The position numbers were made by a program, and so were the translations under genes. A DNA stretch of 63,979 nucleotides, counting the filler, from Kipferlia bialata (lineage: Eukaryota): the NCBI GenBank assembly GCA_003568945.1. It is 4 parts of 4 records of this genome, joined end to end, with 100 filler letters (N's around TTAATTAATTAA, not from the genome) between each part and the next. Parts side by side here need not be neighbours in the genome. Positions count along the whole stretch, not along the records: positions 1 to 19,428 come from BDIP01000424.1; positions 19,529 to 38,946 come from BDIP01000425.1; positions 39,047 to 58,450 come from BDIP01000426.1; positions 58,551 to 63,979 come from BDIP01000480.1. One strand, given 5' to 3'. Positions 9,001 to 63,945 of this stretch are shown here, one piece after another (positions within the stretch are counted from its first letter, which is position 1; each line of letters begins with the position of its first letter). The notes under the pieces were generated by a model, which saw only the letters and a list, made by a program, of their open reading frames with translations, did not search any database and was not told where the DNA came from.

Positions 9001-10288
9001 ACACTACTAGGTCCTTCTCAGACCCCACTAGTGCCACACCCTCTGACTCTAGAGATATCGTGTAGGTACCAGGTACCTGAAGCCCTGTCCCATCAAGTGT
9101 TACACTGTACACACTACCAGAGACGGTCATGGCACTGGACGCAGGGACAGTAGAACCAGAAGGGGATGAGGACACGACAAGAGTGGCACTCACTAGGTTG
9201 AGAGACGCACCACTAGAGTCTAGGAGATCGGCCGTGACAGTGACACTAGACCCTGCACTGAGAGAACTGAGGGTGTTGATGTGGGAGTAGGTGTCAGTGC
9301 CGTCGCAGTAGGCAGTGTTGGATACTGTCACAGTGTTGACAGGCGACGTGAGTATACTCCCGTCAAGCTGGACCTTTATCGTGTAGGTACCGGCGGTAGT
9401 CACTGTCACAGTGCCCGAGGGTACCCAATGGGTACTACCAGAGTCGTAGTAGCAGGCGTACGTAGAGAACAGTGTGTCAGTAGTGCTAACGGTACCAAGT
9501 GTAATCTTGGGGGCTACCGTCGGCATGTCACTCTCGGCAGCCATAGTATCCATAGACAATGGGTCGAGACCGCCTCCGTCGAGTACCACTGTACTGGTGG
9601 TGGAATACACAAGAACATTCAGCGTGTGGTCAACATCAATCACGTCTCCGTCCTCTTCGAACATTGCCACAGAGACGGTCAGGGCACCTGGCGGTTAGAT
9701 AGAGGGTGTATACTGTCAGGGTAAACACGTCATCTATTGACTGATGAGACTACACCTAGTATTCATGCAGTGTATATGCCGACATAAACATATATATACA
9801 CACATACATATATATATTTATTTATACAAGACGCATACTTACCTGATAAGACAACACCAGTGTCAATTTTGTCTTATGAATAAAGTATTGTCAAAACGTA
9901 CAATGATTATATTAGCATCTAATATACCTGATGAGACAACACCAGTGTCAGTGTAGAGGAACACACTGTCTACTGTGTTCTTGACCTGCATGTACGGGGT
10001 ATCTGACGATGTCTCAACCCCCTTCAGGTTGAGGATATCATCCTTGTCAGCAGTAGCATACGGGTCTACAGTGACGGTCTCCACCAAAGGACTGTCGAGA
10101 GATACCCTCTCACTACTCACTGTTGAGTGGAGACACCCATCCCCATTGCACTCAGCATAGAGAGAAAGGGGGTCATACGCATCCATAGGGAGATCAGAGG
10201 TAGCGTGGCCGTCATTGGTAAGCTGTGTCGCGGCCACGGCAACACAGAACAGGCATATTAATGGTAGAAACAGGTGCAGCACTCTCAT
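1..10288 (-). CDS. Giant secreted/surface protein with about 25 or more tandem Ig-like (invasin/filamin-like) modules; 3' end lies outside the window
   Basis: Spliced join 10288-9928, 9687-2291, 2203-1862, 1757-<1 with GT-AG introns that keep frame (SSG|ALTVSVAMF, AFV|IEVD, MMQ|VNGN). N-terminal signal peptide MRVLHLFLPLICLFCVAVAA. ~105-110 aa beta-rich T/S/V repeats with DxxGN and 'AGxYTlsl.vDG' motifs. Confidence 0.85.
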
Positions 10289-10862
10289 GGGATATCACTG
10301 GTAGCCGGAGCCCTGCACAGCCGGGTAGAGAGTCTCTCAGGTGTAAAGGAGAGTTGGGGGTGGTGGTATGGGTATTATTCGATGGTAAGTGACACAATAT
10401 CCCCACGGGTATGTCACTATAGTTTGTAGAGAGGCATGCAAATACATACTCTTCAGTTGTGTTGATTGTATGGACCCTTTCACTGTAGAGACCTTCGATG
10501 GTGAATGAGGGTTTCTCTTGTAGTTGTGGTCCCATATTACAGTACTTCCTTGGGAACTTCCCCTGGAAATTTACGTAGGTTTATATATATATAGCAGCTC
10601 TTCCTTTCTTTCGTAGTATCATACTAATAGTATGTGAAATAGTGCCTCCTCCCACTATATAATGGAAAATCATACTAGGATACTGCATCACAATAGAGTA
10701 TTGTCTTTCTATCATGTATTGCTAGAATTTCAGGAAAGACAGGGCCCAAAGTCCATATGTGTCTGATCCCAAATAGTCGTACGAAGCTCTTGCTAGATCA
10801 TTTGAATCCTAAGAATCAAAGACATACTCCCTCGCTCTCTCTTGGACTCTGCCTCCCATTGT

Positions 10863-12647
10863 CTAGTAGTCCCAAGTCATCGCAAATACTCTGGGGTAAG
10901 ATGTGTATAATATACAAAGTATATCCATTCAATGTGAGCTAAGAATGTGAGTACCACTTCAACATAGACAATGTATAGTTATGTACCGTACCTCCTGTGG
11001 TGTAGGCACTGTGAGACATGTACCGTGGCATAGTCACCTGAGGGTGAGGGCATACCTATTAGTATCTATCTATTTATGTATATACATCAATATCTACATA
11101 CATGCATATATAGTGTATACATGGGTAGATTACTAAGTCTGACACATATGCTGTACCCTAGTCACCTGGGGGTAAGAGAATGCGTATCTCTTGTAGATAT
11201 ACATCTATATCTCACAGCATACATACTAAATTCTATGTAGAATACCCACCCCACAGCATCTCCCTGTCCTCGTCTGACTCTCAGAGAGTCAGGGATGAAC
11301 ACACACATATATATATAAGTCTATATACGATGTATATATGCCATACCCCACAGCATCTCCCTGTCCTCGTCTGACTCTAGGTTACTGAGGGTCTATATAA
11401 ATGGTTTATATAAGTTGAATCTCGTTAGATTCTTGATATGTAGATGTCGTACCCCACAGCATCTCCCTGTCCTCGTCTGACTCTATGCCCACAACAGTGC
11501 TGGTCATGGGCTCGCCACACTCTTGGGTCAGAAAACATATGTGGGTATATATATATAGTATATATACGTCTGACTGGGCTCTCTTCACTCTAGGGTCAGT
11601 ATGACTATATATATATATATATACGAGTATACAGTAGTGTGTTGCCTGTGTACTGTTATATATGGAATATGTACATAACAGTATTGGTCATAGGCTCTCC
11701 ACACTCTGAAGTCAGATATAGTATGTATGTATATATGGGGGGTGTATATGGGTGTATGGGTATGGGTATGGTTATATACATATCCGGATATACATATCAT
11801 GATATACATTAGGTGTATATATGTAACGGTGCTGACCATGGGCTTGCCACACTCTGGGGTTAAAGAGGACATACATACAAGTATATGTATGTGTATGAAA
11901 CACACATCTAAATTAATGTATATATATATATACATTACTATATAGTGTGTCTACTACATGATAACTCTCCACTGTATATACATGAATACATTATCTCTAT
12001 CTGGATACTTTGGGCATGACACAATCCCATTGAAAATACACTGTGTATACACACTGTGTATGTATATAATACATATATGTAGTATGTACATGTATGTCAC
12101 TCCCTGGGCACTTTGGGTGTGACACAGTCTCCTTGCCGAGCCTATATATATTGTAAATATACTAGAGTCGTAAGTATTAAGCAGTAAATGTTGTGTATAA
12201 TCAATGTCTACCTGGGCACTTTGGGTATGACACACGCTCATTGAAAACACACTGTGTATATACACTGTGTATATATATAATATGTATATGTAGTATGTAC
12301 TTATATGTCACTACCTGGGCACTTTGGGTATGACAGTCTCATTAAATATATATTGAATGGACTGTATATATATATACTGTTTATATATATTGAGTATATA
12401 TGTCACTACCTGGGCATTTTGGGTATGACACAGTCTCCTTGCCGTTGAACCAACCACCTGGGGAGAGTTATACTAGATCCAAATATATAGTATTGTATAG
12501 TGAACCAACCACCAAAGTTGAGAGAAAAGAATACTGAAACTGCTATACTGATACCACTTATGGTAAGGATAAAGGAGAATTACAATGAGCATGATAAGAC
12601 ATACAGAGTGTACGGATATCATGAAGTAGTATGAGAGACGGGGGGGG

Positions 12648-12679
<32 letters not shown>

Positions 12680-13860
12680 CCCACTGTGACTGGACTCTTC
12701 ACTCGGCACGCCTCATTGTCACAGTACTCATGCTGACATTAGACCCATGTCTACCGTATCTACATATATAGTGACGCATGCACTTCTCATGTCAGCATGA
12801 GTATTGTATGCATCAGTATATAAATGAATCAAATGATTTGAATAATTACGGTGATGATATATTTATCATATCTCTAATCAGACTTCCAAATAATACAAAT
12901 ACATAGAATGATGTGGGATATATACATAGGATATCTTCACCACAGTGTCTTCTGTCTCCTCATCCAGTCCCTTCAAGACAGAGCGGAGCTCGGCAGCTGG
13001 TATTAGACGCAAGGATACGAAGAATATATTATTACTATAGTTACAAATCAACGAGTATCTACCTCATTTCTAATATGTGTGTCATCTAATATATATACTA
13101 TTCTTCTATATATCTTCTATATATCTTCTATATATCTTCTTCTATATATACTATTATGTTCATTAAGCTTACTATGCATTTGAGTATACTGACAACCGGT
13201 TATGACATAACTTATGTTTTAGATCAGATGACAGTATTTTACGGTACCTACCTTTTGGGAAGTCTCTAGAGCGCCTGACAATCCTGGAAGTTAGATCTAG
13301 TACCCTACTGTTGCAATGTATTATTCTTGTAAACTGAGTCGATTATCCTATCACCATGATATGTGTAATACACTGACACTAACACAAATATGATACTCAC
13401 CCCTTGACCTGGCTCTCCTGGAACACCTTGTCATCCTCTCTGTCCTCATAGAGAGACAAGACGTCATCCCTGAGTGTAAGCAAAATGATATGCACTATTC
13501 AGAATGTAGAGAGTAGAAACAAAATACGTGGTGATCTCATAGCACGAGTAATCAGAGTACATATACAAGTCCATACGTACCTGTCTCTGGCGTTCTCTAT
13601 GTCCTCTGCTGGTACATATCTGACTAGCTCGGCCTCTGATGGAGTGAGTATCACTAAATCAACCAAATTCAGATATATCTTACAGATACAATGCTATATC
13701 TCCATCTTTACCTGAGAACTCCTCGTAGTGAACACAGTCAATGTGAATATATATGTATATGTATGTGTATACCAAAGTATATAGATCAATAGCGTACTGA
13801 ACACATACGTATATATACCTGAGAACTCCTCGTAGTGCCCACAGTTATACTTGTTGAATA

Positions 13861-13892
<32 letters not shown>

Positions 13893-14334
13893 ATGTATGT
13901 ATATGTGTATGTATATGAATGTAAATCTAAGTATGTATATAACTGACACATGTATATACATCAATAGTCCTGAGCACACATGTATCATTACCTGAGAACT
14001 CCTCATAGTGCCCACAGTCATCCTCCTCCTTGCAGACATAGAGCTGGATGAGGCCTGGGATAAGTATGATCCACATGCCATACATATAATAAACATACCC
14101 GTCATTTCGTAAATAGAGAAGAGAATGACAGTGAGTGAATATACACATAGAGCTGGATGAGGTCTGGGGTTGACTGCATATAGACCCAGACACAGACACA
14201 TGTGATATATATAGAGTATTCCTGAATACTAGTCTAAATATACCTTCGTCCCCTAGTCCCAGTGTCTCCTGTACGTCTGATGGCATCTGGGCCAGATTGA
14301 GCTGGACAACAAGGGTCATAGGACTGGTGTTAGA

Positions 14335-14373
<39 letters not shown>

Positions 14374-16079
14374 GCTGGACAACAAGGGTCATGGGACTGG
14401 TGTTAGATGATACATAAATACACACAAAATAGATCACACACATAACATATATATATAGAGAGAGAGAGAAAGAGAGAGAGAGAGGAAAGTAGGTTGAGCT
14501 GGACAACAAGGGTCATGTAGCTAGTGAAAGAGTATGAATTCATATGAGAGACAGAGGGGTATGAATACATATAGGGAGAGAAGTAGAGGTATTGGGTTAT
14601 GGGGACAGGATACTAATAGAGTAAATATAGATAGTATATATATATAGTATATATATAGATATGTGGGCAACAATGGTCATGGGCTGTATTGAGAAGGGAT
14701 AGAGACAGATTTAGAATATAAGGGGAGGGGGGGGGGGGTGAACTCTAAATATATATACATGGAGTAGACAGTATGACATAGTATATAGTGACACGTCCAC
14801 ACACCCTGAGCAGTTCCCGCATCTTGGCAAGTCCTCATCGATATACACTATACATATAGCATAGTATATGTATACATACAGTATACGTATATATATGCAT
14901 GTCAATACGCACCCTGAGCAGTTCCCGCATCTTGGCAAGTCCTCATCCTCAGACAGAAAGCCAATCCCACCAATCTGGGATGAGGGTATATATATATATA
15001 TATATATATATATAGGATACCGTTACTCTAACTGTGTATAACAGAATAGAGATGACTAACCACGCAGTCTATACCTTGGTGTCCAACACTCCACAGTCCT
15101 CGTCCATCTCATATATCAATATATACATACACATTAATATATATATATATATATAAATTACAGTATATACACTAGTACCTTGGTGTCCAACACTCCGCAG
15201 TCCTCGCCCATCTCTGGCAGTGAGTAAATGGATGTAAACAGAGTAATACATACGGCGAGAGAGAGAGAGAGAGACAGAAAGGAGAGAGGGGTACCCACAG
15301 AGAGAGAAGGAGAGTCAGGGGATGAAAAGAAATATAGTATATGTGACCAGGATGCTAGGGTTATATATAGAGAGGATACGGGGTTAGACACACCTCCAAG
15401 TGATAGGTCATATGCTACCCTTGCATGCTGTCCCAGTACATATATACTATATATACTATATATACTATATATACTATATATATACCCTTTACATATACCC
15501 TATACATATACTATATATATATACTATACATATACCTCCCAGGGTCATGTCATATGCTACCCTTGCATGCTGCCCCAGGACATCGAGGAGAGGGGTGGGT
15601 ATGGTGACGGGCTGCTCTGTTACTAGATATGAGAGGGAGTGGTATATGTTTATATATATATATATATACAGAGAGAGAGATGGTGGGTAGGGTGATGGAC
15701 TGCTCAATGACTAGGGGTCAATTAGGAACAAGGGGGGGCAGAGTGAGAGAGAGAGATGGGTAGTGATGTACCTCTCAATGAATGGGGCATGAGAGGGAGG
15801 GGTATATATTGAGAGATAGTGAGAGGGATACCAAAGTATGGACTAGGTATGAGACTGAGGTGAGAATGCACAATATAGGGGGGGGGAGAAAGAGGGATAG
15901 CGTGATAGTGACGGAGAGGGGGGGGGGGGGTTGACAAGGATACTTTGGACAGTATATAGGCATGAGTGAGGGTCAGATACTAAACCCTGGACTGGACATG
16001 CACTGAGACATATAATCACCCACAACCGGTAGTAGTCTGTTCTCAGCATACACGTATTACCTGGTAGCGGATTGCACAT
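10863..16079 (-). CDS. YwqG/DUF1963-like protein, about 15 exons
   Basis: Spliced peptide MCNPLP|VTEQPVTIPTPLLDVLGQHARVAYDMTLG|EMGEDCGVLDTK|IGGIGFLSEDEDLPRCGNCSG|PMTLVVQLNLAQMP..|GLIQLYVC..; second half GGWF..YPKCP|ECGEPM..MLWG|DYATVHVSQCLHHR|RVFAMTWDY* (TAG 10863-10865). The KIGG-P-CxxC-M-QLNL and WGD motifs fit DUF1963. Confidence 0.7.
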
Positions 16080-16445: not shown

Positions 16446-19428
16446 TTACTCCCTGAGCTCTGCCTTGAGCTCTCTGTTGATCTGAGGTTAATAATACTTA
16501 CAATATACAAGAAGTGATCTGGCAATAGAATGGTATACAGTATATGAATCTATGTATATAGTATATAGATAGAGTAGATATATACATATATCAAACCTTT
16601 GAGTACTGGTAGCCAATGGCACTCTTACGTTCCAGCATATACCACTATAATCAAGTGATATGTATCTTCATATATATATATACATATATGTCTGAATATA
16701 GTCTGAATACATATATATATATCCCATACCTTTGAGTAGTGGAAGTACTGGTACCCAATGGCAACGTCCAGGCCTGGGGTGAGAGATATCCAGAGAGAAA
16801 GACAGACAGATAAGTACAGTGAGCAAATGTGGCTGTATGCTGCAACTATATGTGATGCCGTATACATACTGTATACTAACCTAGCACACCGGCACTGCCT
16901 ACGATCCATGGTATCTGGGGCCATATGAGATCCCATGTGGTGGCAGTCAGGGCAATGGAGAGAGCATAGGTGGTGTTACCACAGACTAAGAATGAGTGTG
17001 GAGAGAGAGAGAGAGAGAGACAGGGGTGGCGGTCAATGTGATGGAGAGGGCATAGGTGGTGTTGCCACAGATTGAGGTGAGAGACAGAGTGGTAAGGGGG
17101 ACGGGAACGAGTCCAAGAGAGGGGGGGGGGGGGTCAGAGCGATAGATGTTTATAGAGGATATATGTACACATGCACCCACTTGCAATGCTGAACATGCTG
17201 ATGAATATATATATATATATATATATGGATATGTATATGTATATATGGATATATGGATATACATATACATCCACTCACTTGCAATGATGAACATGCTGAT
17301 GATATATATATATATGTGTGTGTGTATATATATATATTCTAATGTATATATGATGAAACACAACACAACTAATACATATATATATATATACATATACTAA
17401 CACATACTGATACGTATATGATATAACACCCACTTGCAATGATGAACATGCTGATGCTCAGGGTCTCGGGGGACTTCTCCCTGGAGAGTGAGGGGTGGAA
17501 TATAGAAACACATATATACGTATTTCTCATATAGGGGAAGAGTAATAGGGGAGATAGAGAGATATGTAAGCTCAGGCTTTTAGGGGACTTCTCTCTGACA
17601 GTAAGATAGGCTATCCACTTGATATAGAGAATACTATAGGACACGGAAACTCAAGAGGCTAGGGAGAGAGAAACTATATTGTTTCCATTACCTGACATTC
17701 TTAAGAATCTGGTTGATCCTGCTGGCGACATAGTTGACACCAGAGACCCAGCCTGAGGGGTAAGTAGCGCAATGTAAGTAGGTGAGTACTCAGTTACGTC
17801 AGGTAAGACACACAAGAGTGTCTCTCATACACACAGTAAATCTATATTTATACAATAGTATGCAGGATATTTACTCACCCAACATCCATCCCACCCAGAA
17901 CTGCCACGTCAGGGGAGTCTCATCGTCAGATAGGGTGACAGAAGGGACGCTGCTAGCCTGGGTTATAGAGGGTATATACACAAACGCATAGGAGGGTATA
18001 TATTCATATACGTTGTATTGTGTATATCTCATCGTCAGTCAGGGTGACGGAGGGGATGGAAGAGGCCTCTGATTAGTAAAGTGAGTAAGATTTACATATA
18101 TAGTAGAATTCTTGTATGTCTCGTCTGTCAGGGTGACAGAGGGGATGCTGCTGGCCACGGGTAAATACCATTAGAAACTATCCTAATACTAATCATAAAC
18201 AGTAAACAAATATATACTGCATATATATTAATGTACCGTAGTCCCCAGTGCCAGTGCGAGTGTGAGCAGCATGGCCAGAAGGTGGATATACTACAAGTAT
18301 ATATATATGTATATAGTATATGCATGTATTGCATATACCCTTGTCCCTAGTGCCAGTGCCAGTGTGAGTAGCATGGCCAGGGGGTGGATGGCCAGGGAGG
18401 TGTCCTGGGTGGTATCTGCCCTGGGTGTTAGAGTATGATATTCTATATATCCTATATATACTAATATATATACACAACTATAGCTTCGAATATTAAGAAT
18501 CTATGGGGGTGGGTGGCGAGGGAGGTGTCCTGTGGGGTCTCGGCTCTGGAGATAAGAGATAGACTAACACTCAATATATACTATGCACTACATTTATATA
18601 CATATTATAACAAACACTGAATACATGTATATATAAAATTATATATATATATATTATATATATGGATGGCCAGGGAGGTGTCCTGGGTTATATCAGCCCT
18701 GCAGGTAGAGATATAGTAGTATATATACATATATAGATATTATCGTGTATTCGTACAGTAGGTTGGTCCCCTCCAGGACAGTGCCCTGCTTGTCCTTGGG
18801 AGAGTACAGGCGGAACTGGAGGGTGAGAATGGGGAGAAAGAGGTGTCTGGACGAAGAACCAATACGGATACATGCATGAATATGGATAGAGAGAGAGAGA
18901 GAGAGAGGTATGGTACCTGGACGAAGAGCAGCACGTCTGCCAGACAGTAGTAGAGGGCACTGAAACTGGGGTGAGAGACTCCAGAGAGCACTGTATAGTA
19001 GTTGTTATTGAATACTATTATACAGTATAGAATAATGCACTGACACTAGGGGTGAGGGAATCAAGTGAAGGAGTAATCAACGAAACAGAGAGTGCTGTCT
19101 ATAGAAAATATATAAATAACACATACTTTAAAATGGAAATGATAATGGGTGCATGGAGGAGAACTACAACCAGCGAGCGAAGACTTACAGGAGAGGAGAA
19201 AGAGGAGAAAGGGGAAAGAGAGAGAGAGAGAGGACTTACATTTGTGTTGGTAGGGCACCGATGATCACAGCTCCTGGGGTAAGATAGACTATAACGGACG
19301 TAGAGAAGGAAACAGAACAAATAGAGAGCAGAGGGTGTGAGAGTGAGAAGCTCATTCATATACATCACAGTGGTACCTAGCAAGTTGGTGAGGTCACCAA
19401 TGATCCAGTTGATGAGGAAGGCATATAA
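16446..19428 (-). CDS. PQ-loop lysosomal/vacuolar cationic amino-acid transporter (PQLC2/LAAT1/Ypq family), 5' truncated by scaffold end
   Basis: Exons read YAFLINWIIGDLTNLL|GAVIIGALPTQ|FSALYYCLADVLLFVQ..WVGWMLG|WVSGVNYVASRINQILKNV|REKSPETLSISMF..GNTTYALSI..PQIPWIVGSAGVL|GLDVAIGYQYFHYSK|INRELKAELRE* (TAA 16446-16448). Confidence 0.88.
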
Positions 19429-19684: not shown

Positions 19685-21139
19685 CTGAATCCCTCTAACA
19701 CTCCTGTCATGGCCTATAAGGGGGGCAACGCTAGGATAAGAGAAAAGAGAGAGAGAGAGAGAGAGAGAGAGTCCCATTTCACTGATAAAGGGTCAACGCT
19801 TCAGGTAATTCAAAGTATATATGATATTATCATAAAATATGATAATTCAATGTATTTGTATAGTGTGTGGATATTTGTATATAATCTCATATCAGTGTTC
19901 TCAATGATAATATCAAAGTATCTATATATATTCACATAGTGTACGTTGCGTCTCTGTCAAAAGCTACAGTCAGATATATTCAGTGTACTAACTCTAGGTA
20001 CTACTAACATACATACTGCAAAGTAGGTCATAGCGTACCCTGCGTCTCTGTCTCCATACCGTAAGGCAGGGATTTCTCCGTCGTCAAACGTGTGGGTGGG
20101 GTCCTATACATAAGTCAAAGGAATGTCATTATGAAAGTAGAATAATATGGAGGTATAGCAATAATATGTAGAATCAGAAGTCATTATGCAGTCATACATA
20201 TTATCTATACACTCTATACCTGTAGTATCACAGTGCCAATGGACCTGAGAGCGTCTATATGTATTTGTTAATCCCTATATATGATATATATATGTCATGT
20301 ATGTATACACTGCCCATACACTAACTATATACTGTGTACCTGCAGTATCACTGTGCCAATGGTCCTGATGGCGTCTCCTATGGGACTGGGTTGGCCAAAG
20401 GCATGGATGCTCAGTCCATCCTGGTGTCAATATACTTGATAAATATATATATATTGAGAGAGAGAGAGAGAAAGAGTATGGGACTGGGTTGGCCAAAGGC
20501 ATGGATACTAGGTCCGTCCTGGAGTAAGTATACATGGTATACACATATAGACTTATGTATAGAGAGAGAGAGAGAGAGACAGAGTATGGGACTAGGCTGG
20601 CCGAAGGCATGGATACTCGGTCCATCCTGGTGTCAATATACATGGTATATATATATATATAGAGAGAGAGAGAAAGAGTATGGGACTGGGTTGGCCAAAG
20701 GCATGGATACTTGTCCCATTCTAGAGTTAGCATACAAAGTATACAAATATATATATAGAGAGAGAGAGAGAGACAGAGTATGGGACTAGGCTGGCCAAAG
20801 GCATGGATGTTTCTCCCATTCTAGAGTTAGCATACAAAGTATACATATATATACAAAGAGAGAGAGAGAGAGACAGAGTATGGGACTAGGTTGGCCAAAG
20901 GCATGGATACTTGTCCCATCCTGATGTATGTATACATAGTATACATATACATAGAGAGAGAGAGAGAGAGAGTAAGGGACTGGGCTGGCCAAAGGCATGG
21001 ATGCTTGTCCCATTCTAGAGTTAGCATACAAAGTATACAAATATATATATATAGAGAGAGAGAGATGGAGAGAGAGAGTATGGGACTGGGCTGGCCAAAT
21101 GCATGGATGATTGTCCCGTACTGGTGTCAATATACATGG

Positions 21140-21174
<35 letters not shown>

Positions 21175-24100
21175 TATGGGACTAGGTTGGTGAAATACAT
21201 GGATGCTTGTCCCATTCTAGAGTTAGTATACTTGGTAAGTACTTGGTAAATGTATATATATATATATATATGATGACAGATAGAGAGAGAGAGAGAGACA
21301 TGAATGCTTGTTCCATTCTGGAGAGAGTATAGTACAAATATATATTGAGAGATAGAGGGGGAGAGAGTGAGAGAGTATGGGGCTGGACGTACTCGGTCCA
21401 TCCTGCCACTCTGACCCTGTATCTGTGTCAATTACCTACACATATATCGAATATATATGTATATCTATATACGAATACTAAGACGGAGAGACAGAGATAG
21501 GGAGAGAGATTTATACCTGCTGCCCCACATCCACTGCCACTATGAGTCTGGGTGAGATGCGCTCCAAGGCCAGTCTCTTCTGAAGGTGAGGATTAGGGGG
21601 GGGGAGAGAGAGAGAGAGAAAGGGGGGGAGAGAGTTCTGACTGTGAGTACAGATCGCACTGCGCTGTGGTACTCCCCATGTCTATATAAACACTCATGTA
21701 TTAATATGCAAAGCAAAATGTGTGTACCTTCTCCTCCCTCTCCGTCACTCTGTTCCCACGTATTTACACTTAGTACATATTTCTATATTGAATAATCATA
21801 TTGAGAATAGATATAACGAACTTGTACATACTAGTATGCATTACCTTCTCCTCCCTCTCTGCCACTCTGTCTCTGGGATGTATATATCAGTATGTATACA
21901 ATACATACGTACTGCATTATAGATGGAGTATATATATATACTACCTTCTCCTCCCTCTCTGCCACTCTGTCCCTGGGGTGTCTGCCCTCCCTGCCACCAG
22001 CCAGGACCATGAAGGGGTATGCTACTGCAAGACCTTTGAATGAGAGGTTATATAATATACAGTATATAAATATATATATGTATAAATGTATCTGCCCCCC
22101 CTGCCACCAGCAAGGACCATGAAGGGGTAGGCTACTACCAGACCTAAGGGTTAGAGGAACATATATGATACATATATATATATGTGTGTGTGTGTGTATA
22201 TTTATATACATGTGTCTGCCCTCCCTGCCACCAGCAAGGACCATGAAGGGGTAGGCTACTACTAAGCCTGAAGGTTAAAATAGTCTGTAATATACATGCA
22301 TGCACAAATATATATATATGTATGTATCTGCCCTCCCTGCCACCAGCAAGGACCATGAAGGGGAATGCTACTGCTAGACCTTATGGTAAGAAGCATATTA
22401 TATACATACATGCACACATATATATATTAGTGTATCTGCCCTCCCTGCCACCAGCAAGGACCATGAAGGGGTAGGCCACTGCTAGACCTAAGAGTCAGTA
22501 ATATTGGTATATACACATACTTATTCAAATATATATCTATATGTATATATATTGTATGTATCTGCCCTCCCTGCCACCGCAAGGACCATGACGGGAAGCA
22601 TGCCATACCCAAGTAAAGAGTAAGGTACGGTTGTATAGAGATGAGAAGGAAAGAGAGACAAACATGATGGGGTAGCATAGAGAGAGATACATATACTAGC
22701 AAGGACCATGAAGGGGTAGGCTACTACAAGGCCTAAGAGTAAGATAATATATGAGATACATGTACATACACATGTATGTGTATATATATAGACTACTAGA
22801 CCACCTACGAGTAACTATTATGTTACTCTAAATAGATGGGAGTGAGTGTGTGTGAGAGAGAGAGAGACAAACACAAATGATATGGGCTTACTGCTAGAAG
22901 CATACGGGAGAGAGAGGATGAGACAAGACATGCATCAACTTGGTATGTCTAAGTTGGGTGAATATACAATATATACTCTATATATACTCTATACTCTATC
23001 AGACACAGGCTACCTAGCATCTGGTACCATTTGAGACCAGCCATCTCTCTCTCTCTCTCTCTCTCCAAGACAGGTGTGTGCGATCGCTGAGTAGAGGATG
23101 AGAGCGTCACACCGATGAGCGAACCGTATGAACCGTTTGTCACTAAAATAATGAACGCATTTCAGTACACCTCGACAACACAATACTAACTCAGTAGTGC
23201 TACGCTTATCATTACTGAGCATACGGCTTCAGCTCCTCTCCACCGGGGAGAGACAGCTGTAAGGAGTATACAGTGTCTGTGCTTGGGGGTTCCAGACACC
23301 CATACATGGCAGCCACTATACCTCCACTTCTTCCTCCATCGCTCTCTCCACTACTCTCAAGTGTCCGTGTCTCCGCTAGTCTCTCTGTCTCTCCTGCTGG
23401 TAGTTCCCCTAGTGTACCCATGTATGCCATACCACCTACAGACTGACCCATAGCAGGGACCCGGCCTCGGTATCAGTGATTACTCACTTGAGTAGTTGGT
23501 ATGTATATACAGATAAAATAGACCTGGTATATGTATATATATTTCTTAGATATGCTACAACATCATACCTAATGACACCCACTCCTGTGAGACCAGGGAG
23601 TAGCAGTAGAGGTCATCAACACCCTGGAGGTCAGTTAGATCCACTGACAGTCTACGGCGCACTAAGGCGATTGACTCAGCAATTCACTGCATAGTAATAC
23701 AATTGACGTATTGGAAATATCGACTGTACCTCTGCAAATCGTCTCACTGCACATACGATGTGTCTGTCCAGTGGGAGTATGGAGTACACCAGACTGTATG
23801 CATAGACACCTGGGTCTATGCCTCGTATCTCTACTCCCTCGATTCTCTGATGTTAGTGAGTATAATGAACAGTACATATATGTATAAGCAATCCCATCTG
23901 CAAATGCCTGGCCAGTAACCGTCCTCTCTCTCTCTCTCACACAATGAAGATGCACCCAGACCTACCTGTAAGTGCCTGGCTAGTGACCGTAGTATATCAC
24001 CCCCCATGTATGCTCTCTCTCTCTCTCTCTCTCTCTCCCTCGCACTTATACTAACAATCCACCCAGACTCACCTGCAAGTGCCATGCTAGGGACCGTAGT

Positions 24101-25692
24101 ATGTCACCCCCCATATATGCTCTGTTCTCCCCTATAGTACTCCCAGTGGGAAGAGGGGTGCATTCAATCCAGCGCTGAGGTTAGATACATAAGCAATAGT
24201 ATAAGCTATATACGTACACATACACATATATATATATATGTATACTGTACCACCACTATGGAGAGGGAAGCATTCCATCCAGCGCTGTAGTCAGACAGTG
24301 ATATATGTCAAATCATGTACATATATGTTCGCTATATACAAAATCCATTGTGTGGCAACCAAGAATGTCAAATTACAATGATAGCCACTCATAAATCTGT
24401 GTATACTATATAGTAATTACCTTAGTCTCAGGGTCCTCCTTTTCTTTCTGTGTATATATCTGCGTATATACATACAACTGTATATATATGCACACAGATA
24501 CATATACAGCACTAACCCTTGTCTCAGGATCATACTTCTCTATCTGTGTCTGTGGCACTGGGTCCTCCGGTGTGGCGGGATATCCCCAGTACACATGGAA
24601 CATGCCCTGGAGGTATTAGTACTGTGTATATATAGGTACAAATATGTATCACACACATAAGACTCTATACTCAGTATGGCGTGCTGGAAAAGACCCAAGT
24701 GTGTCCATATACCTCGCGTTCAAATGACAACAGATCTAGTGGCTCTTCCTCTGGATCAGAGTGTCTGGCATGGTCTAAGGGGTGTTCCTAATTCATCAGA
24801 CAATACATAAGTGTATACTATACACAATAGAATATATACAATAGTATCTAGATATACTTGGTCACACACAAGTATATCTAAATCAGGGTCAGACTTAGTC
24901 TAACGTATGCTCCTACCAGTAAGGTGGATCTCACAAGTAGTTCACACGAAATATGTACCACACATATATACATTACTATATACACCAGTATGTACCAATA
25001 CCTGTCGCCACTCGTATGTGTCAAGACTCAGTACCCACACTTAGTGCATATATATATACATTCATACATAGATATGTAGATAGATAGATTTAGATATTGA
25101 TAGTAATATAGTGCATAATATGTATACTATACAATGTATTCCACTATATGTACCTGTCGCCACTCGTAAGTGTCAAGACTGAGTACCCACATCTCTCCTG
25201 AGTGCCCAATGTACTCATAGAGCTGATATGAGTCACTACAAGTCACGAAGAGTCAATATAGTCAACAATAGCGGTGTGCTCCTTCGTCCATTTAGGTATA
25301 GATAGCAGCTACGGTGTATGCTTATCTGATACAGGAAAATCTCATTGATACATGCAAGATTTGCCATTTGGTTGCCTTGCACAGAAATTTCATCCACTCA
25401 TGCCGTTGTCCCGACAATACATATGTATTTGAATGAGTGTATGAAAGTACTAAGACAGTACAAACCCATGAAGATTGCCTGATTCCTATAACACAGACCA
25501 CACATGCCATTGCCCCGCCCAGTCAGCCATGAATACACATATACAAACATATATATAAAAATCCCATATATCTCATATATATGATCTATACCTCTCCCCC
25601 CACCACACATGCTGTTGTCCCGCAGAGTCTACCTAGACCACCCTCGACGGGACAGGGTATTAGTTCGTCAGTATATGTGCCTACATATTAGA

Positions 25693-25723
<31 letters not shown>

Positions 25724-26356
25724 TCTGCCCAGGCCACCCTCGATAGGACAGGGTATAATGAGTTCATTTGTCATTGTATCAATATTAGAGTTGATATGGA
25801 ATTGCATCAACTCATCAGTTAAGTGTCCTCACTCTCAGAGGCAATATGGTATAGTGTGTGTGAGAGAGAGATATTGGCCATGAATGGGATAGGGCATAAG
25901 TGCATCGGTATATGTGCCTATATATGAGAGACAGAGAGAGGGATGGAGAGAGAGAGTAGCCGTCAAATGGACAGGTATTACTCCATCGATATAGCTACCT
26001 TTCCACTAGAGGGTACACTCATTGAAACAACCATCACTGAGCCGAGAGTGGTGGTGCAGAGAGGGGGAAAGACAGAGAGAGAGAGAGACATTAGTGTGGA
26101 TGAATGCAGAGAGAGGGGGAGGGGAAGTGAGAGATAGAGAGAGAGAGAGACATACCGTCACTGAGCCGAGTCAGAAGGATGCAACAGTTCAATCCTGGAT
26201 ATGAGAGGTGATGTAGAGAAGGGATGTATACATAAATACATATATATATACATATATATTAAATATACGTATAGAGAGAGAGAGAGAGAGAGGGAGAGAG
26301 AGGGAGAGTACTTATGAGGCATGGGTTGCAAGGGGGAGGAGTGGATATGAGAGGTG

Positions 26357-26396
<40 letters not shown>

Positions 26397-26857
26397 AGAG
26401 AGAGAGAAGGAAGGAATATATGAGGCATGTGTTGCAAGAGGGAGGAGTGGAGGGGGGGGCATACAAGACATGGGGGTTGTATATTTATATACCTTCAACA
26501 TCTCCAGGTGTGTCCCTTCCCTGTACGGAACCTATCCACATACACTGGGTGGGGGAGACAGGGACAAGGTCACCCCAGGCCCCTGGGAGTCAGTATACAA
26601 CAACATGTAGAGTCACAGTATACTAGTATACATTTATAGTATATCATAAATACATATGCCTCTGTGGCACTAGCGTACTCTCTCTACCAGTCTCTTTCTC
26701 TAACTTTACTATCACTCACCCACCTGGCATATACCTCAATGCGTATCATTGTATCAATGGAAAGTACTGTATCTATAAAGGTAAATATCTAATCTATCAC
26801 TCACGTACCCGGCATATACCTCAGTGGCACATGGGTGATACTCACGCCATCGGTCAT
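19685..26857 (-). CDS. Kelch-like beta-propeller protein, multi-exon, 3' end probably beyond the scaffold edge
   Basis: Exons MTDGVSITHVPLRYMPG|AWGDLVPVSPTQCMWIG..|GLNCCILLTRLSDG..IPCPV..LYEYIGHSGEMWVLSLDTYEWRQ..GMFHVYWG..IEKYDPETR|RWIECTPLP..GVDDLYCYSLVSQEWVSLG..VAPLIGHDRSVRGIQ. Repeated Y-D/S-x4-5-W blade motifs. Some internal junctions unresolved. Confidence 0.7.
20380..21420 (-). repeat. Intronic tandem array (~100-nt unit, ~8 near-complete plus 2 partial copies) of an acceptor site plus exon start
   Basis: Plus-strand unit gagtatgggact.ggytggccaaaggcatggat..ctagagttag / ctggtgtcaa, separated by (TA)n/(GA)n; matches the first ~36 nt of the real exon at ~20340-20420. Confidence 0.92.
21940..22740 (-). 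repeat. Intronic tandem array (~110-nt unit, ~6 copies) of the acceptor and start of exon LAVAYPFMVLAGGREGR
   Basis: tctgccctccctgccaccagcaaggaccatgaaggggt recurs near 22090, 22215, 22327, 22435, 22561 and 22699 (partial); the full exon is at ~21945-22034. Confidence 0.92.
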
Positions 26858-28960: not shown

Positions 28961-29697
28961 ACACCCTTATGTCCAGCCAAGACTCTGCCAGAGACCCAGG
29001 AGCTCGAGCTGGACCTGTAAGTGAAAATCTTTCCACCCATATTCCTTCCTCTTGTGTTATTAACAGGATACTCTCTCTATTTCTCTCTCCATCCATATTT
29101 CCCTCCTCTGTGAAATATGTAGTAATAGTGTCTGTCTAACACTCCAGCGGCGATACCGACATTAACATGACCTTCGACTGGAGCTACACAGAGACGTCTT
29201 GGCCGTACGTACATCTGATACACCATGTCTATACATAATATACTATTATTATATATATATATGCGTATATCTCCTTCGACTGGAGCTACACAGAGACGTC
29301 TTGGCCGTACGTCCTCTATCACGTACTCTGTTATATTTAATGAGTATTCCAATTCAGCTTGTCTATTGACTGGAGCTACACAGAGAAGTCTTGGCCGTAC
29401 GTAACCCTAGCTCTCTATCTTGGTGACACCACCTCTCTCGCTCGCACTCTCTCTATATATATATGTATGTATATAAGGATATACGTCCATATGCATGTGT
29501 GTCACTCTCTCTGATCTCTAGCTTTGCTTCTGAACTTCTCTCTCTCTCTGTCTCTCTCTGTCTCTCTCTGTCTCTCTCTCTCTCTGTCTCTGTCTCTCTC
29601 TCTCTCTTTCTCTGTCCCTATCTCTCTATATATATTTATGTCTGATCTCTAGCTTTGCCTCAGACTCTGGTACTGGCACTGCCTCCTGTGCTGGTAT

Positions 29698-29736
<39 letters not shown>

Positions 29737-37430: not shown

Positions 37431-38599
37431 ATGAGGTATGTCACCTTACTGGCAGTAGGCTACTGCCTATTTCTCAATCTGTTTGATTCCCTTTCCCTGC
37501 TTCAATCTCATGCATGTGAATATGAAGCCTATATATAATATATAGGTGTTTGCAAGTAGTAAGGTATCTGACCCTAGTATGGTTCCCCGGCTCCTCTCAG
37601 TACAATAACACAGAGAGAGTAGATCTATATAAACATGGTGTATGGTGTATAGCTTTTACAGGTGCCTATGGGGGGGGGGCTGAAAGATATCTGACCCCAG
37701 TATGGTTCCCCGGCTCCGCTCTCTGATCCGCAAGGGGTACAAGGTGGCACTTCGGTGCCAGCGAAAGTAAGTGATAGTTAGGATATCCTCCCTCACCCCC
37801 ATCTCCCCCCCTCCCCCTCCCCCCCTCCCCCTCCCTCCCATGATGGGATCATCACCCTCTCACTTCAGCCAGAGGCTTCTCCACTCCACTATATATATAA
37901 ATGTATATATATGTGTGTGTGTATCCGTATATGTACTGACTGCAGCCAGTGGCTTGCCCCGGACTATTGGTTCCTCTCTCTCTCTCTCTCTCCCCCTCAA
38001 CCTCTCCAACTCACTGCAGCCAGAGGCTTCTCCACTTCCTAGAGCTGCGCACCGTAGAAGAGGGTCACCTTACTCAGGTAGTTAGATACTAATTGTAACG
38101 TTGCCAGACTCTTTCTCTCTCTCTGTTGTTTTTTGAGGCTCTCCTTACTCAGGTAGTTACATGCTGGTAGTGTATATGCACTCTCCTGTGACAATGTGTT
38201 TAATGGTATAGGCCTTCTAGCGTCAATGCCATTGTGTGTAGTTATGTATTGATATCCAACTCACTATAGATCCTTAGTATATGATCCACGCTGATACGAG
38301 ACTGTCTCTCTCTCACTGCATCTCTCTCTCTGTCTTTCTGTCTTCCTCTCCCTCTCTTCACCTCTAACCCCCAGGAGCTCTTTGACACTATACACTCTTT
38401 CTCTCTCCCTCTATATACACCATAAGTTAAGGCTTAACCCTCTATACACCATTAGTTAAGGATTAACCCTAGGAGTTCTTTGACAGCATACATTAGACTC
38501 TTATGGTAAGAGGGGCCATTCTCTCTCCCTCTCTCTACACCCTTTTACCCTAGGAGTTCTTTGGCAGCACACATAAGGCCCTTATGTCATAAGGGGGGC

Positions 38600-38634
<35 letters not shown>

Positions 38635-38810
38635 CCTCATATAATATAACACCAGGAGTTCTTTGACAACATTCATAAGGGGGGCCATTCTCTCTCTCTC
38701 TCTCTCTACACCCTTTTACCCTAGGAGTTCTTTGACAACATTCATAAGGGGGGCAGGGAGTACAAGGGCACCAAATTCACCTCGGTAGAGTGCCTCCAGA
38801 CTCACTATAA
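37431..38810 (+). CDS. Hypothetical protein, 4 exons visible, 3' truncated by scaffold end
   Basis: ATGAG|GT..ctgaccccag|T gives MSMVPRLRSLIRKGYKVALRCQRN|QRLLHFLELRTVEEGHLTQ|EFFDNIHKGGREYKGTKFTSVECLQTHYK; intron phases are consistent. Confidence 0.65.
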
Positions 38811-38946
38811 GTACGATTAATTGATTGATTGATTGATTTACTTACGACACTAGTGCGGCGTGACCCTCCGGGTCACCAGTGTGGCATACAAGAATACATA
38901 CTCCCCTGGCCAGTACTTATGCATTGATTCATACTACTACATAGTA

Positions 38947-58550: not shown

Positions 58551-60742
58551 ATGATACAGCTCACACAGGTACAGTGCCCTCATCCCGTCTCTCTTCCTCC
58601 CCCCCCCCCCCCTTCCCACCCCACCGCCAGGGAGGACAGTCCACTGTCTTTCTCTTTCTCTCTCTCTCTATCTCTCTCTGTCCCTCCCCTCTGACCCCCA
58701 GGAGGGCATGGCCACCTCCCACTCCCAGATAGTCATGTCTGTCACCCACATGCATGAGAGCCACGTGGCAGCCATCCAGGCGTCCAAGGTATAGTATGTA
58801 CTCTACATACTATAGCCAACATATATACAGTCATCAAAGGTATCGATTACATATATACATCCATGGTTAGGTATTGGATGAACTGACCCCCCAGGATGCC
58901 CTGCATGCCTCCCATGCCAAGGTGGTGGCGGCACTCACAACGGCACACGGCAAGGAGGTACATAATATATCTGGTAGTATTGTATATTGATGCATGGGGG
59001 GGGGGGGTACTCTATATGATAGGGCGTCCCACTGTCTCACTCTAATGCTTAGTGCTGCTGCTCTACTGTATTCACCTAGAGAGCAACACTGCTGTATTCA
59101 TCCACTCTCCCCCACCCTAGGTCCAGGACTTGGATGAGAGACTGGCCTCCCTGACCACGGAGATAGACACACTCAAGATAGAGGTGGGTCTGTCCTTCTC
59201 TCTTTCTCTCTCTCTCCCTCTCTCTCCTTCTCCCTGTCTCTCTCTCCCCCTTACTGCCAGGTCCAGATGGGTGTGTCTGAGAGGGAGAGAGAGAGAAACC
59301 AGGCCAGACAGCAGCTGGAGGCCAAGCAGGCAGAGGCAGAGGCCGCGCAGGATCAGGTGGGTATATATAGATAACTTACATCTGTGTGGCGTATATATAT
59401 ACAGTTATTGGTCTTATAGAGACGCGTATGTTTGACCTCCAGTGCGGCACCCTTGCCGCCTCTCTCTCTGCCTCTGAGGCCGAGTGTGCCCGTCTGACTG
59501 CTCAGCTGCGAGATATCTCCATAGAGAGGGAGGCCAGCAGCGGGAGGGCCGACCAGCTGACCCAGCGACTGGCCGATGTGACTAGGGAGAGAGATGTCCT
59601 GGCAGAGACGCAGAGACAGAGCAGGCAGATGGTGGTGACCCTGCGGACAGACATGGCCCAGTGCCAACAGACTCTGAAGGTTAAGGAGGGTAGGCTGGGA
59701 GAGGCCATGATAGAGATAGAGGCATTGGGGGTGAGGGTCAGTGCCTTGGAGGCAGAGAGAGATGGGCTGGAGGCCAAGTGGACAGAGGAGCAGCAGAGGC
59801 GTGTACAGGCCGAGAGGGGTATGCAGGAGGAGGCGGCCAGGGGCAAGGCCCAGCAGAAGGAGTTTGAGGCTGAGCTAGCCCTGGAGAGAGACGCCTTCCG
59901 GGAGAGACTGAGGCTGGCCGAGGGAGGGGGCGCACAGGAGAGGGCGAAGCTGGAGGCGGCAGTTGCGACACTTAAGGCTGAGCTGGCCTCTGCTAAGGAT
60001 AAGCACCGGGAGCAGGAGTCCGCACACCAGGAGAGGATACGCATACTCTCTGAGCAGGTGCAGACACTGACTGAGAAGGTGCAGACACTGGGTGACAGGG
60101 TGAGGGAGAAGGAGAGAGAGAAGAAGGCCCTGGCCACACAGCTGGGGGAGGCCACTGCCTTGGGTATGGAGAGGGAGACACAGCTGGAGTCACTGGCTGG
60201 GGTGTCTGAGGACATGCGGCAGAGGCTGGAGGAGGCAGAGGCAGAGAGAGACGCACTCATGGGGCAGGTGCAGGGGCTGCAGACAGAGCTAGAGGAGGAG
60301 AGGGCCAAGGAACCAGCCCCTGCGGCTAACACGGGGGAGGAGGCCAAGCTCAATATGCAGGTATTGATGATATGTCCATGTTTGACATTGTGGTCATGCC
60401 TATATACATATATGTGTGTGTGTATGTGAGTATATTTTGGATGTATTTCAAGTATTCATTGATTTTGTTCAGCAAATTTACCCTCAGATCAACATTCTGA
60501 AACAGACTGTTAGGAAGGAGTGCCAGGAGAGGGCAGAGCTACTCAGATACGTATCCACCCTGAGGGCCCAGGTGGCTGAGCTGTCCCAGGGGGGTAGGAC
60601 CCCTGGGTCAGTTGGGGGTAGAGGGTCAGGGGCAGCCACCCCATCGTCAGAGGGAGAGAGAGAGAGAGAGAGGGAGAGGGAGAGAGACCGGCAGTACAAG
60701 GCACAGCGCAAAAGGGCACCGTCTAGGACCATCAGGCGGTAG
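58551..60742 (+). CDS. Long coiled-coil protein, LEKR1-like C-terminus; 5' truncated
   Basis: In-frame exons EGMATSHSQ..|DALHASH..|VQDLDERL..|VQMGVS..|CGTLAASL..KLNMQ|INILKQTVRKECQERAELL..RR*; E/Q/R/A heptads; LxxTVRxECxERxEL recalls LEKR1. Confidence 0.7.
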
Positions 60743-61824: not shown

Positions 61825-62775
61825 ATGGAGAGCTATCTGGTTCCCGAGGTTAGGGTGACTGAGCTGTCCAGTGGGTTTCTGGATAGCATGGACACCTCAG
61901 TATACATCGCCCTCAACCAGACACTCTGGGTGGGCAGCATTCACAGTGAGAAGAGGATGATAGCAGGCATCATAACCTACAACGATGATGGGACGCTGTC
62001 TTGTGAGAGTGTACCCGCACCTGACGTGTATCCCTCGCGCGAAGCGATATACGATTTCCCTTTCCGGCTCGCGGGCAGAATCGGGAGTGAGGTGTATGGA
62101 CTCAAGTTCCAGTTTAACCACCGATCCCAGAATTTTCGTCTTGACTCAGTGTGGGTGTTCTCACTTGACTCTCGAGTCTGGAGGGAGATGTGTCTTGATG
62201 GGCTTGTAAGGACGGTTGCCAGGTCAGATAGACTGCACTCTGTTGGCGTCATCTCAGAATCCATCTGGGTGTCATCGGATGGGTCAACTCCTGTTGTATA
62301 CACTCCTGAGACTGGAGAGGTTAGCAAAGTTCCAGCGCTGGAAAGGATACTAGACCACAACAAGTGGGGTGCCGGACTCTGGGGCCTGTGCTCTGACAGT
62401 ACCACATGGTATTGGAGCGGGTACAATGGGAGTACCGTCAACATCTGGTCCTACACCATACAACCAGATACCCTTACCACTAGTCCCTTCTTGACATCAA
62501 TGTCAGTCCCAGACTGTGAATACAGTGATAAGATTCCCATGGGATCTTGGGTGGTGTCCACAGACCGAGGGCATGTTGATATACTCTCCTGTATCTCAGG
62601 AGACACCTTCCGCCTCACAGACACGCTGCCATATATGTACTTACGACGCGTTCTGAAGTGTGTGCGTGTTGGTGAGAACTCTGTGGTCGTCAAGATTAAG
62701 GTTCTGGGTCGTGATGTGTCTAGACATGAACATACCTACCTGATTGATATCCATACGGTCTCCGCTGATCCTTAG
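61825..62775 (+). CDS. Intronless divergent kelch-like beta-propeller protein (316 aa)
   Basis: Clean ORF with no microsatellites; DDGTLSCESVPAP, GRIGSEVY, VWVFSLDSRVWRE resemble the spliced kelch-like gene at 19685-26857. Confidence 0.75.
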   Translation: MESYLVPEVRVTELSSGFLDSMDTSVYIALNQTLWVGSIHSEKRMIAGIITYNDDGTLSCESVPAPDVYPSREAIYDFPFRLAGRIGSEVYGLKFQFNHRSQNFRLDSVWVFSLDSRVWREMCLDGLVRTVARSDRLHSVGVISESIWVSSDGSTPVVYTPETGEVSKVPALERILDHNKWGAGLWGLCSDSTTWYWSGYNGSTVNIWSYTIQPDTLTTSPFLTSMSVPDCEYSDKIPMGSWVVSTDRGHVDILSCISGDTFRLTDTLPYMYLRRVLKCVRVGENSVVVKIKVLGRDVSRHEHTYLIDIHTVSADP

Positions 62776-63271
62776 AGTCATCCCAGTGAAGTAGAGAGTT
62801 GTTGCTTTCGTGCCAAAGAGTTCTTTGTATTATCACTAGCACTATTGTGTATCTGTGTTGCTACAGCAGTGTAGTATTGTGTTTGGAAAAGAGTATAGAA
62901 GTCCACTCCCCTGATCATACAATGTTGGGTGTAGAGCTTGAGTAGACGTTATAACTGTGTTGAGATAATGACTCAGATACACACTTATTGCAAGTGCACG
63001 AAGAGTTGATCTTAGTACCCGGAGAGGTAGTATGGAAGAGTAACCAGGACCCAGTGAGGTATTCAGTGTATATATACCACTCACTGCACTGCTATTGATA
63101 GTCCCAGTAAAAATACTTCCCTAATTATCCCTTGTCGATCCACTGTCTATACACTAATTGAATCACGTAATCCTACATCCATCTGCCTTGTGTGTTAGAC
63201 CTAATGGTACGCATGCCCTACTCTGTCTTGTATTAATGTATCTCAGACCACGGAGTCAAGGTTCTCTCTCC

Positions 63272-63945
63272 CTAGAACCCCATCCTCCCCCTTCCCCGTG
63301 GTGCTGTCTCTGTGCATGTCTCCCTGACCCCCTCTCTGTCCACTGTCAGCAGGAACGTGTCACCGTCATCCCCATCCACACCACAGTCTGCAACGACAAG
63401 CACGGTGTCTAGTGTGAGAGAGAGATAGAGACCGACAGAGAGAGAGAGAGAGAAAGAGAGTCAGCAACAGCTATCACGGTGGTCTGGTATGAGAGAGAGA
63501 GGGAGAGAGATAGAGTCAGCAATGACAAGCATAAAGTCTGGAGTAATAGAGGTCCTATATGCGAAGAGAGAAAGAGAGAGAGAGAGTGTGTAATGCGTTT
63601 GGCATCTAGGGTATGTAAAAGACAGATAGAGATAATAGACGAACTGAGATGGAGAGATAGAGGGCACCTGAGTTCAGCATGCATGAGCCATAGCGCTCGA
63701 AATAGCTCTCCCCACAGCTGTCGGTGGGGGTCTGCTCGAGCTTTCCCTGTGAGCCCCAGAGGTCTCTGAAGGTCAGACAAATGATAGGGTTGCAGGCTAT
63801 CACTGTATATATCATTGGATATTTCATATATACCGGGTGAGTGTATACCCTACCATACCTCACTGAGTCGTATCCCCAGACCCCAACCTCCTCCTGGATA
63901 GCCCCACACGCACCAAACACCAGCGAGATATATCCGCCTATGCCC
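63272..63945 (-). CDS. C-terminal three exons of a protein, probably the same kelch-like family; 5' part outside the window
   Basis: GIGGYISLVFGACG..VWGYDSV|RDLWG..YGSCMLNS|DTVLVVADCG..TFLLTVDREG..MGF* (TAG 63272-63274); phases are consistent. Confidence 0.6.

Follow-up and report, generated by a model that had tools for sequence, protein, structure and literature searches.

We questioned why introns in a stretch of the Kipferlia bialata genome contain repeated copies of the ends of their neighbouring exons, splice signals included, and how the correct splice sites are chosen among so many near-equivalents. Kipferlia is a free-living protist, and all counts below come from one window of DNA (the whole stretch analysed, 63,979 nt, made up of four scaffold pieces with N spacers between them) from one strain. 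We refer to the copies as echoes: a donor echo repeats the end of the preceding exon with its GT, and an acceptor echo repeats the AG and the start of the following exon. We assign a probability of roughly 55% to the reading that echoes are formerly working junctions of other haplotypes, copied into introns by misaligned repair, in a genome whose spliceosome pairs the sites that lie nearest one another across the exon.

Local alignment of 45-nt exon ends against the 108 introns of 13 multi-exon genes detected 137 echoes, comprising 70 donor copies in 43 introns and 67 acceptor copies in 36. At least one echo was present in 67 introns (62%) and 10 genes, including every intron of at least 400 nt (24 of 24). 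Controls were near zero: exon ends matched introns of other genes in 2 of 4,660 comparisons, reverse complements gave 0 of 108 for both echo types, and searches in the wrong polarity (exons of at least 80 nt only) gave 1 of 45 and 0 of 45. Where both kinds occurred in one intron (n = 12), donor echoes always lay 5' of acceptor echoes. An earlier reading of this DNA (the first-pass annotation) had proposed that introns in most spliced genes carry exon-end copies with their splice signals, and that these have a consistent polarity, and both proposals are borne out.

Outside support was available for 60 of the introns, and the other 48 come from genes modelled by hand with open frames. The support consisted of an RNA-like contig (5 introns), mapping of the database proteins P0003 and P0002 (47), and protein P0005 (8), with which the hand model agreed at 355 of 355 residues. 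P0003 and P0002, themselves gene predictions, matched 22 and 27 exons exactly and used the exon-adjacent sites; at three exons of P0002 and one of P0003 an alternative path through an echo or other site would yield an equal protein, and the single-exon path was retained there. Exon searches returned KIPB_002528 and KIPB_002524 at 100% identity, along with the paralogs KIPB_008444 and KIPB_007156. An automatic gene finder mistook echoes for exons, and its output served only as a scaffold for models. One further gene with echoes (G5, ~34.8–36.9 kb) was excluded from all counts, as its frame could not be settled.

The exon part of an echo was typically 17–48 nt long (5th–95th percentile; maximum 56), and echoes reaching the junction retained the GT in 60 of 68 cases and the AG in 49 of 55. 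Identity to the real junction was ~0.9 over the last 20–25 exon bases and the GT or AG, then dropped abruptly to ~0.5. Median spacing was 108 nt and 109 nt for the two kinds. Intron length followed ~150 nt plus 117 nt per echo (r = 0.91; median intron 273 nt), such that echoes account for about half of intron length (137 × 117 of 32,195 bases). Direct repeats across the window were local: 152 of 219 direct matches, against 1 of 11 inverted matches, were at most 400 bases apart. The idea that local duplication inflates introns is supported as regards length, although plain duplication followed by decay would not produce the codon bias described below. The spacers of (TA)n or (CT)n noted previously occurred in 60 of the 74 nearest spacers and likewise in 28 of 45 other introns. 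The description of echoes as tandem copies applies to a minority of arrays that repeat whole units; the intron flank of an echo resembled the real flank better than unrelated introns do in only 31% of donor and 40% of acceptor echoes. Near-identical flanks (7 or 8 of 8 bases) in 21 of 122 echoes, together with the whole-unit arrays, show that ordinary tandem amplification occurs as well.

Echo load differed between genes. Three genes (39133–40720, 40969–42111 and 58702..60740, the last on the plus strand with 0 of 5 introns bearing echoes) were echo-free, their nine introns all measuring 77–163 nt. Among 11 introns with other internal repeats, only one had no echo. Two other arrays were mostly or wholly intronic: a purely intronic direct repeat at 26250–26450, of an acceptor-like stretch lacking the AG, and a mostly intronic four-copy array of ~83-nt units at 36200–36530, in the excluded gene, with ~11 nt of exon.

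Evidence on which sites are used came from a 1,277-nt contig (depth 60) of sequencing run X2, a run judged RNA-like by guess and available as contigs without junction counts. The contig joins five exons of a gene at 19685..23044 (minus strand; 4 of 5 introns with echoes) at exon-adjacent sites and runs on into the upstream exon. Across three bridged introns it bypasses eight acceptor echoes, two donor echoes and one donor echo, respectively. The intron at 20421..21516, with eight acceptor echoes and no donor echo, was removed whole (joint 20419–21516), as was that at 21580..21944, whose donor echoes place a GT at 21844 and 21727 (joint 21579–21945). A loose contig end at 22035 carries on into the upstream exon, implying that six more acceptor echoes are bypassed in the intron at 22034..23013, where the acceptor in use is AAG and several echoes offer CAG or TAG. 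One extra contig end carries nine letters of the acceptor echo at 22261–22269 and stops exactly at its AG, a weak hint that may reflect low-level decoy use or an echo-like allele. The contigs of X2 and of the DNA run X1 were compared with the window over 19530–22040, and the three genes supported by database proteins lie outside the RNA check.

The spliceosome passes over its decoys, as the first-pass annotation had supposed, even though an intact echo scored at least as high as the site in use for 24 of the 41 donor families and for 16 of the 34 with acceptors. Proximity across the exon prevails even where a more distant site is of equal or greater strength, as directly supported by RNA at one gene. 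Use of the first donor could be explained by scanning, as described for human F7 (PMC1557585), whereas use of the last acceptor, which applies to 36 introns, requires a rule of proximity across the exon. Exon definition, which selects the sites closest across the exon and thereby matches both echo types (PMC9225289), fits this choice; it was seen at one gene and is probable elsewhere by extension. It is nonetheless unexpected with a median intron of 273 nt and in a lineage that reportedly lacks almost all U1-associated proteins: exon definition has been described for long flanking introns, with short introns pairing across the intron (PMC9225289), while U1-associated proteins are reported to be nearly absent from the metamonads studied, with no small nuclear RNA candidates found in K. 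bialata (PMC6679479). The proposal that only the outermost sites leave an open frame held for 101 of 107 intact echoes, which would shift the frame or add a stop if used, and not for the other six.

A suggestion that nested inside-out splicing strips decoy pairs successively is highly improbable. The donor-then-acceptor order in all 12 mixed introns would permit nesting, but 55 of the 67 echo introns contain one kind only and just three contain equal numbers, so nested pairing cannot be general. The introns with 0 + 8 and 2 + 0 donor and acceptor echoes join their outer sites in the contig, as does the intron with 0 + 6 by way of the loose end.

A branch-like motif accompanied 60% of echo acceptors and 65% of real acceptors, relative to 11% of other AGs. 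Considering all 108 acceptors, the motif lies within ~18 nt of the AG in that 65%, and a C-rich run precedes the AG, a layout resembling the fusion of branch point with acceptor in diplomonads (PMC6679479). Acceptors in use that have upstream echoes (n = 34) were weaker than others (3.6 versus 5.8 bits; within-gene p = 0.007), and selection on the real acceptor might be relaxed where an echo exists.

We assessed how echoes differ from the exon ends they resemble, omitting 14 of the 137 that do not come within 4 nt of the junction, as well as one with fewer than 12 aligned nt. Differences occurred at 143 of 560 four-fold sites (25.5%) and 130 of 2,174 zero-fold sites (6.0%), a ratio of 4.3. The ratio was 4.6 in a fixed 18-nt window (family bootstrap 3.2–6.3), and the silent excess had the same direction in all seven genes with at least 10 four-fold sites. 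The ratio of nonsynonymous to synonymous rates was 0.18 (0.14–0.23), and there was one stop in 1,105 codons compared with ~5 expected. For example, an acceptor echo at 29653..29700 (plus strand) differs from the start of its exon (29747–29846) six times in the first 45 nt, in an alignment read by eye, and all six differences are at silent third codon positions. Sequence context and transition bias were rejected as causes, given a risk ratio of 4.35 when stratified by trinucleotide and a difference in transversions alone (12.6% at four-fold versus 2.1% at zero-fold sites). Detection bias was ruled out by simulations passed through the same detector (donors only, no indels), in which plain duplication gave ratios of 1.5–1.8 and prior constrained divergence of 0.1–0.2 changes per site in each copy gave 3.3–4.7. 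A copy that evolves neutrally from the outset cannot have a ratio far above 2, so plain duplication and decay are insufficient; conversion from exon to echo alone was set aside by the similar reasoning that it caps the ratio at 2.

Constraint was also apparent on the echoes' own branches. In three-copy trees of the 34 families with at least two echoes, four-fold and zero-fold change was 10.6% and 1.5% on the exon branch, 8.3% and 2.4% on the near echo branch (p = 0.003), and 15.9% and 5.2% on the far echo branch (p = 1e-4), the far echo being the more decayed. Changes on the echo branches were thus not independent of codon position, as they would be in neutral pseudo-exon fragments. Although echo splice signals differed from the real ones at 44% of donor positions and 50% of acceptor positions, they scored as well as the real signals (p = 0.56 and 0.45) and much higher than random decay would leave them (p = 2e-5 and 2e-8). 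Amino-acid changes in echoes were not biased towards conservative replacements relative to random (p = 0.59), an outcome that is compatible with decay once a junction is displaced but adds no support. Echoes within one array differed from each other by 186 changes in 565 codons, with a silent share of 0.47 and flank identity of 0.56 versus 0.55. Statistically, then, most of the divergence between echo and exon arose while protein sequence and splice signals were constrained, including on the branch leading to the echo. Silent-biased divergence and preserved splice scores make echoes look like once-functional junctions, which likely worked for most of the time since their split from the present junction.

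Paralogs and alternative exons were considered as sources of this pattern. Echoes of the LBP/BPI-family gene (G4) have 24 amino-acid differences in all; where the paralog P0004 too differs from the exon, four of five echo residues are those of P0004 (two of them sharing a family), which speaks for the main reading. At the level of site-instances where P0004 differs from the exon, echoes matched it at only 4 of 52, and P0004 was rejected as template. Duplicated cassette or mutually exclusive exons, as well as half-exon cassettes, were likewise rejected: splice sites at the far ends of echoes were at background (3.0% versus 2.6%; 7.3% versus 8.8%), only 2 of 122 echoes came near a whole exon, and 101 of 107 break the frame. 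Separately, a 27-nt echo at 43016–43042 covers 28 nt of a 30-nt exon and has AG and GT flanks; it is a candidate cassette exon, absent from the database protein.

Coding selection can act on both copies of a junction only if they reside on different chromosomes, from which we infer capture from diverged haplotypes. Haplotypes in the population would differ at ~15–25% of four-fold sites, with introns so dissimilar as to be barely alignable, which would leave exon ends as the sole homology. Some outbred species reach 10–20% silent diversity. A break could be mended with the other haplotype as template, by one-ended copying that crosses the junction and non-homologous closure, or an existing echo could misalign with the allelic exon end, such that the other haplotype's working junction is installed as a new near echo. 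By either route one junction would stay in use and another would be shifted into the intron. Selection would keep products with a complete exon and a half-exon copy and would remove deleted exon ends and whole-exon duplications, which would account for both the polarity and the absence of whole-exon copies; polarity would need no special mechanism, as a tolerated junction copy must presumably fall on the intron side. Displaced junctions would then decay slowly, partly as observed in the far echoes, and the exon-adjacent sites would win whatever their strength, as in exon definition and as seen at the one gene with RNA support. The repair machinery appears compatible with capture: metamonads lack non-homologous end joining (NHEJ), all fornicates examined have lost Rad51A and have two Dmc1 paralogs (PMC8516963), and Dmc1 stabilises mismatched heteroduplex (PMC6719624).

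Several explanations compete with capture from haplotypes. Under one, the donor was not a standing allele but a second genome copy, from an old hybridisation or genome doubling and since lost. The uniformity of four-fold divergence by echo rank (25.5, 25.7 and 25.4%) and its small overdispersion agree with a single source of this kind, and so does the failure to see a diverged allele today; however, echoes in the same array differ from one another as much as from the exon, such that several donors would be needed, and the 4 of 52 matches to P0004 argue against the surviving paralog in G4. We consider this unlikely, and about equally so the possibility that ordinary duplication is followed by indirect selection, in which an echo often becomes the real exon end through array collapse or conversion and damaged echoes are a load. 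Such selection would keep zero-fold sites, GT and AG, and splice consensus without diverged alleles, and clear whole-unit arrays do exist at 20.4–21.3 kb and 56.35–56.84 kb. Frequent exchange should, however, homogenise silent sites and flanks, which differ by 25% and ~45–50%, and by our reasoning a very large population would be required. Slightly less probable again is a minisatellite origin, with tandem duplication of ~110 nt across the junction between sister strands, neutral decay and fast scrambling of AT-rich spacers. This process is known in amphioxus (PMC3087553) and accounts for polarity, spacing, whole-unit arrays and the 21 echoes with conserved flanks, but it caps the ratio near 2 against an observed lower bound of 3.2, predicts a flank identity of 0.89 at the observed GT retention of 0.89 where 0.56 was found, and predicts at least one neutral terminal echo branch where neither was neutral. 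It is disfavoured as sole cause, although plain duplication may have supplied the first copies and some later amplification.

A role for echoes as functional RNA elements (extra landing sites for small nuclear ribonucleoproteins, expression-tuning decoys or alternative half-exons) is improbable. It would be in keeping with the preserved splice consensus and with the contig end that stops at an echo AG, but selection at the RNA level gives no codon-position pattern, nearly all intact echoes disrupt the frame, their far ends have no splice sites above background, and three genes do without echoes. We give very little weight to an assembly artefact, in which alleles or pieces of read length were concatenated. 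The published assembly is based on short reads (PMC5874029), spacing is near 100 nt, differences resemble those between alleles, and the contig check leaves out the eight-copy array. Nevertheless, X1 DNA contigs at 19781–20437 and 21637–22040 hold exon and echo (in the latter, both donor echoes of the intron) in one piece with 0 differences, contrary to the artefact that the first-pass annotation had named as grounds for refutation; X1 is possibly the window's own source, which makes this a second assembly rather than a second sample. The depth of these contigs (428 and 409) is similar to that of neighbouring pieces (349–411), two alleles cannot yield up to eight distinct copies, and the spacers are unique.

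Several observations weigh against capture from haplotypes. A second haplotype was sought and not seen: DNA contigs at ~19.6–22.0 kb contained no allelic letters (contigs drop variants), the helicase exon search gave one protein, and metagenome scans recovered no Kipferlia relative, with no locus for P0003 and ten distant helicase loci for P0002; searches for a second isolate were likewise negative. Flank identity (0.56) is below the 0.65–0.78 of allelic simulations, which requires introns to change faster than silent sites as well. Mismatch counts show no clear overdispersion (chi-square 141 on 121 df, p = 0.10), a narrower spread than expected from a wide range of allele ages. The whole-unit arrays and near-identical flanks of some echoes are more readily attributed to tandem amplification, and no test explains the weak acceptors at echo junctions or the ~110-nt spacing. 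The basis is one window of one strain, with 48 of 108 introns on hand models and RNA evidence limited to contigs from one gene in a run whose RNA status was guessed.

The first-pass annotation had regarded this architecture as undescribed, which is correct only in part. The layout is published: in amphioxus, 'mirages' in Adh3 and the globins BflGb6 and BflGb9 are junction-spanning tandem copies at either exon boundary, many of which keep AG or GT without affecting normal splicing (PMC3087553). Kipferlia shares the junction-spanning direct copies, the retained GT and AG, and exon-adjacent splicing (in the RNA-like contig at one gene). Amphioxus mirages are nevertheless minisatellites at few loci, with units of 150–160 bp in the globins, 81–100% unit identity and concerted evolution (PMC3087553), whereas Kipferlia echoes occur in 62% of introns, usually as one or two copies, with flanks that are mostly unlike, codon-biased divergence and whole-unit similarity in a minority of arrays. 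Human donor-spanning minisatellites (F7 IVS7, 6-16, CBS IVS13, LAMIN B2 and PDGF) similarly place functional pseudo-donors after a real donor, and the most upstream is used, as in Kipferlia, but they are described as single loci with near-identical units, at donors only (PMC1557585). In the Rogers model of intron gain, as in Kipferlia, local duplication multiplies splice signals; there, an AG|GT duplicated within an exon creates a new intron (PMC3087553), while here existing junctions are copied. New introns of this type were rejected: no more than 4 of 67 and 6 of 55 echoes showed the geometry, and almost all of these had low-scoring sites. The available text of PMC3087553 reports no codon-bias test of mirages. 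The Kipferlia genome paper describes a 51-Mb short-read assembly, a diploid k-mer profile and 124,912 GU-AG introns (PMC5874029), and its main text has no occurrence of 'duplicat' or 'tandem' by term search. Literature searches, which covered few subscription journals, returned no account of the Kipferlia pattern, of junction copies at a comparable frequency, or of their divergence being biased by codon position. The finding is thus partly known and partly new: the layout is known, the codon-biased divergence of echo and exon is new, and so, as far as these searches went, is the prevalence of echoes.

If capture from haplotypes is correct, intron growth through repair between diverged haplotypes can be read from one genome, and echoes preserve former alleles of a species in which one isolate has been sequenced. 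Were the 62% to hold across 124,912 introns (PMC5874029), the genome would contain tens of thousands of natural competitions between equally strong real and decoy sites, in a eukaryote that branches deeply and has a reduced spliceosome, making the mechanism and age of exon definition testable from existing reads. The echoes also bear on whether Kipferlia gene structure is ancestral, as intron length at least has been recently and actively remade, and the codon-position test could be transferred to amphioxus mirages. More tentatively, and at rather less than even odds, Kipferlia introns may be a genome-wide archive of retired allelic junctions, laid down in ~110-nt patches by repair without NHEJ or Rad51, making up about half of intron DNA and tolerated by a spliceosome nearly devoid of U1 proteins that applies strict exon definition to ~270-nt introns.

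On the plus strand, a ResIII/Helicase_C helicase gene (P0002, KIPB_002528; 42478..54040) has echoes in 21 of 26 introns, including five acceptor echoes at 49581–50312, and the LBP/BPI-family gene (P0003, KIPB_002524; 27018..34889) in 15 of 21. Also on the plus strand is a partial gene at 37701..38930 (2 of 3 introns; hand model of lower confidence). On the minus strand, a Cys-rich protein gene at 10860..16079 (hand model) has echoes in 8 of 14 introns, among them one with four donor and two acceptor echoes (11522–12409) and another with two donor echoes that are 100% identical over 32–33 nt although their flanks are unlike (11038–11452). Hand models with open frames on this strand include a gene at 23210..26857 (6 of 10 introns) and a membrane protein at 16446..19273 (5 of 9), which is cut at its 5' end by the scaffold end and which may be a PQ-loop membrane transporter. 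A partial gene at 63300..63944 (minus strand, hand model) has one weak acceptor echo in two introns.

The 3' part of a CDC45-like gene (P0005; 54830..58320, minus strand) has echoes in 4 of 8 introns, that at 56231–56806 containing four donor echoes and no acceptor echo. Its match to PF02724 (E = 1.4e-7) is below the curated cut-off, and an identity as ubiquitin ligase was rejected. The CDC45-like product has a long acidic tail and is of interest given the reduced replication machinery of fornicates (PMC8516963). Finally, a large secreted-type gene at 2240..10288 (minus strand; hand model, open frame) encodes ~2,600 residues with a signal-peptide-like start in a structure with a 7.4-kb exon and a single intron (9688..9927), which contains two donor echoes. 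Its product is likely a surface protein, and the gene contains internal repeats of ~633 nt and 1,263–1,293 nt.

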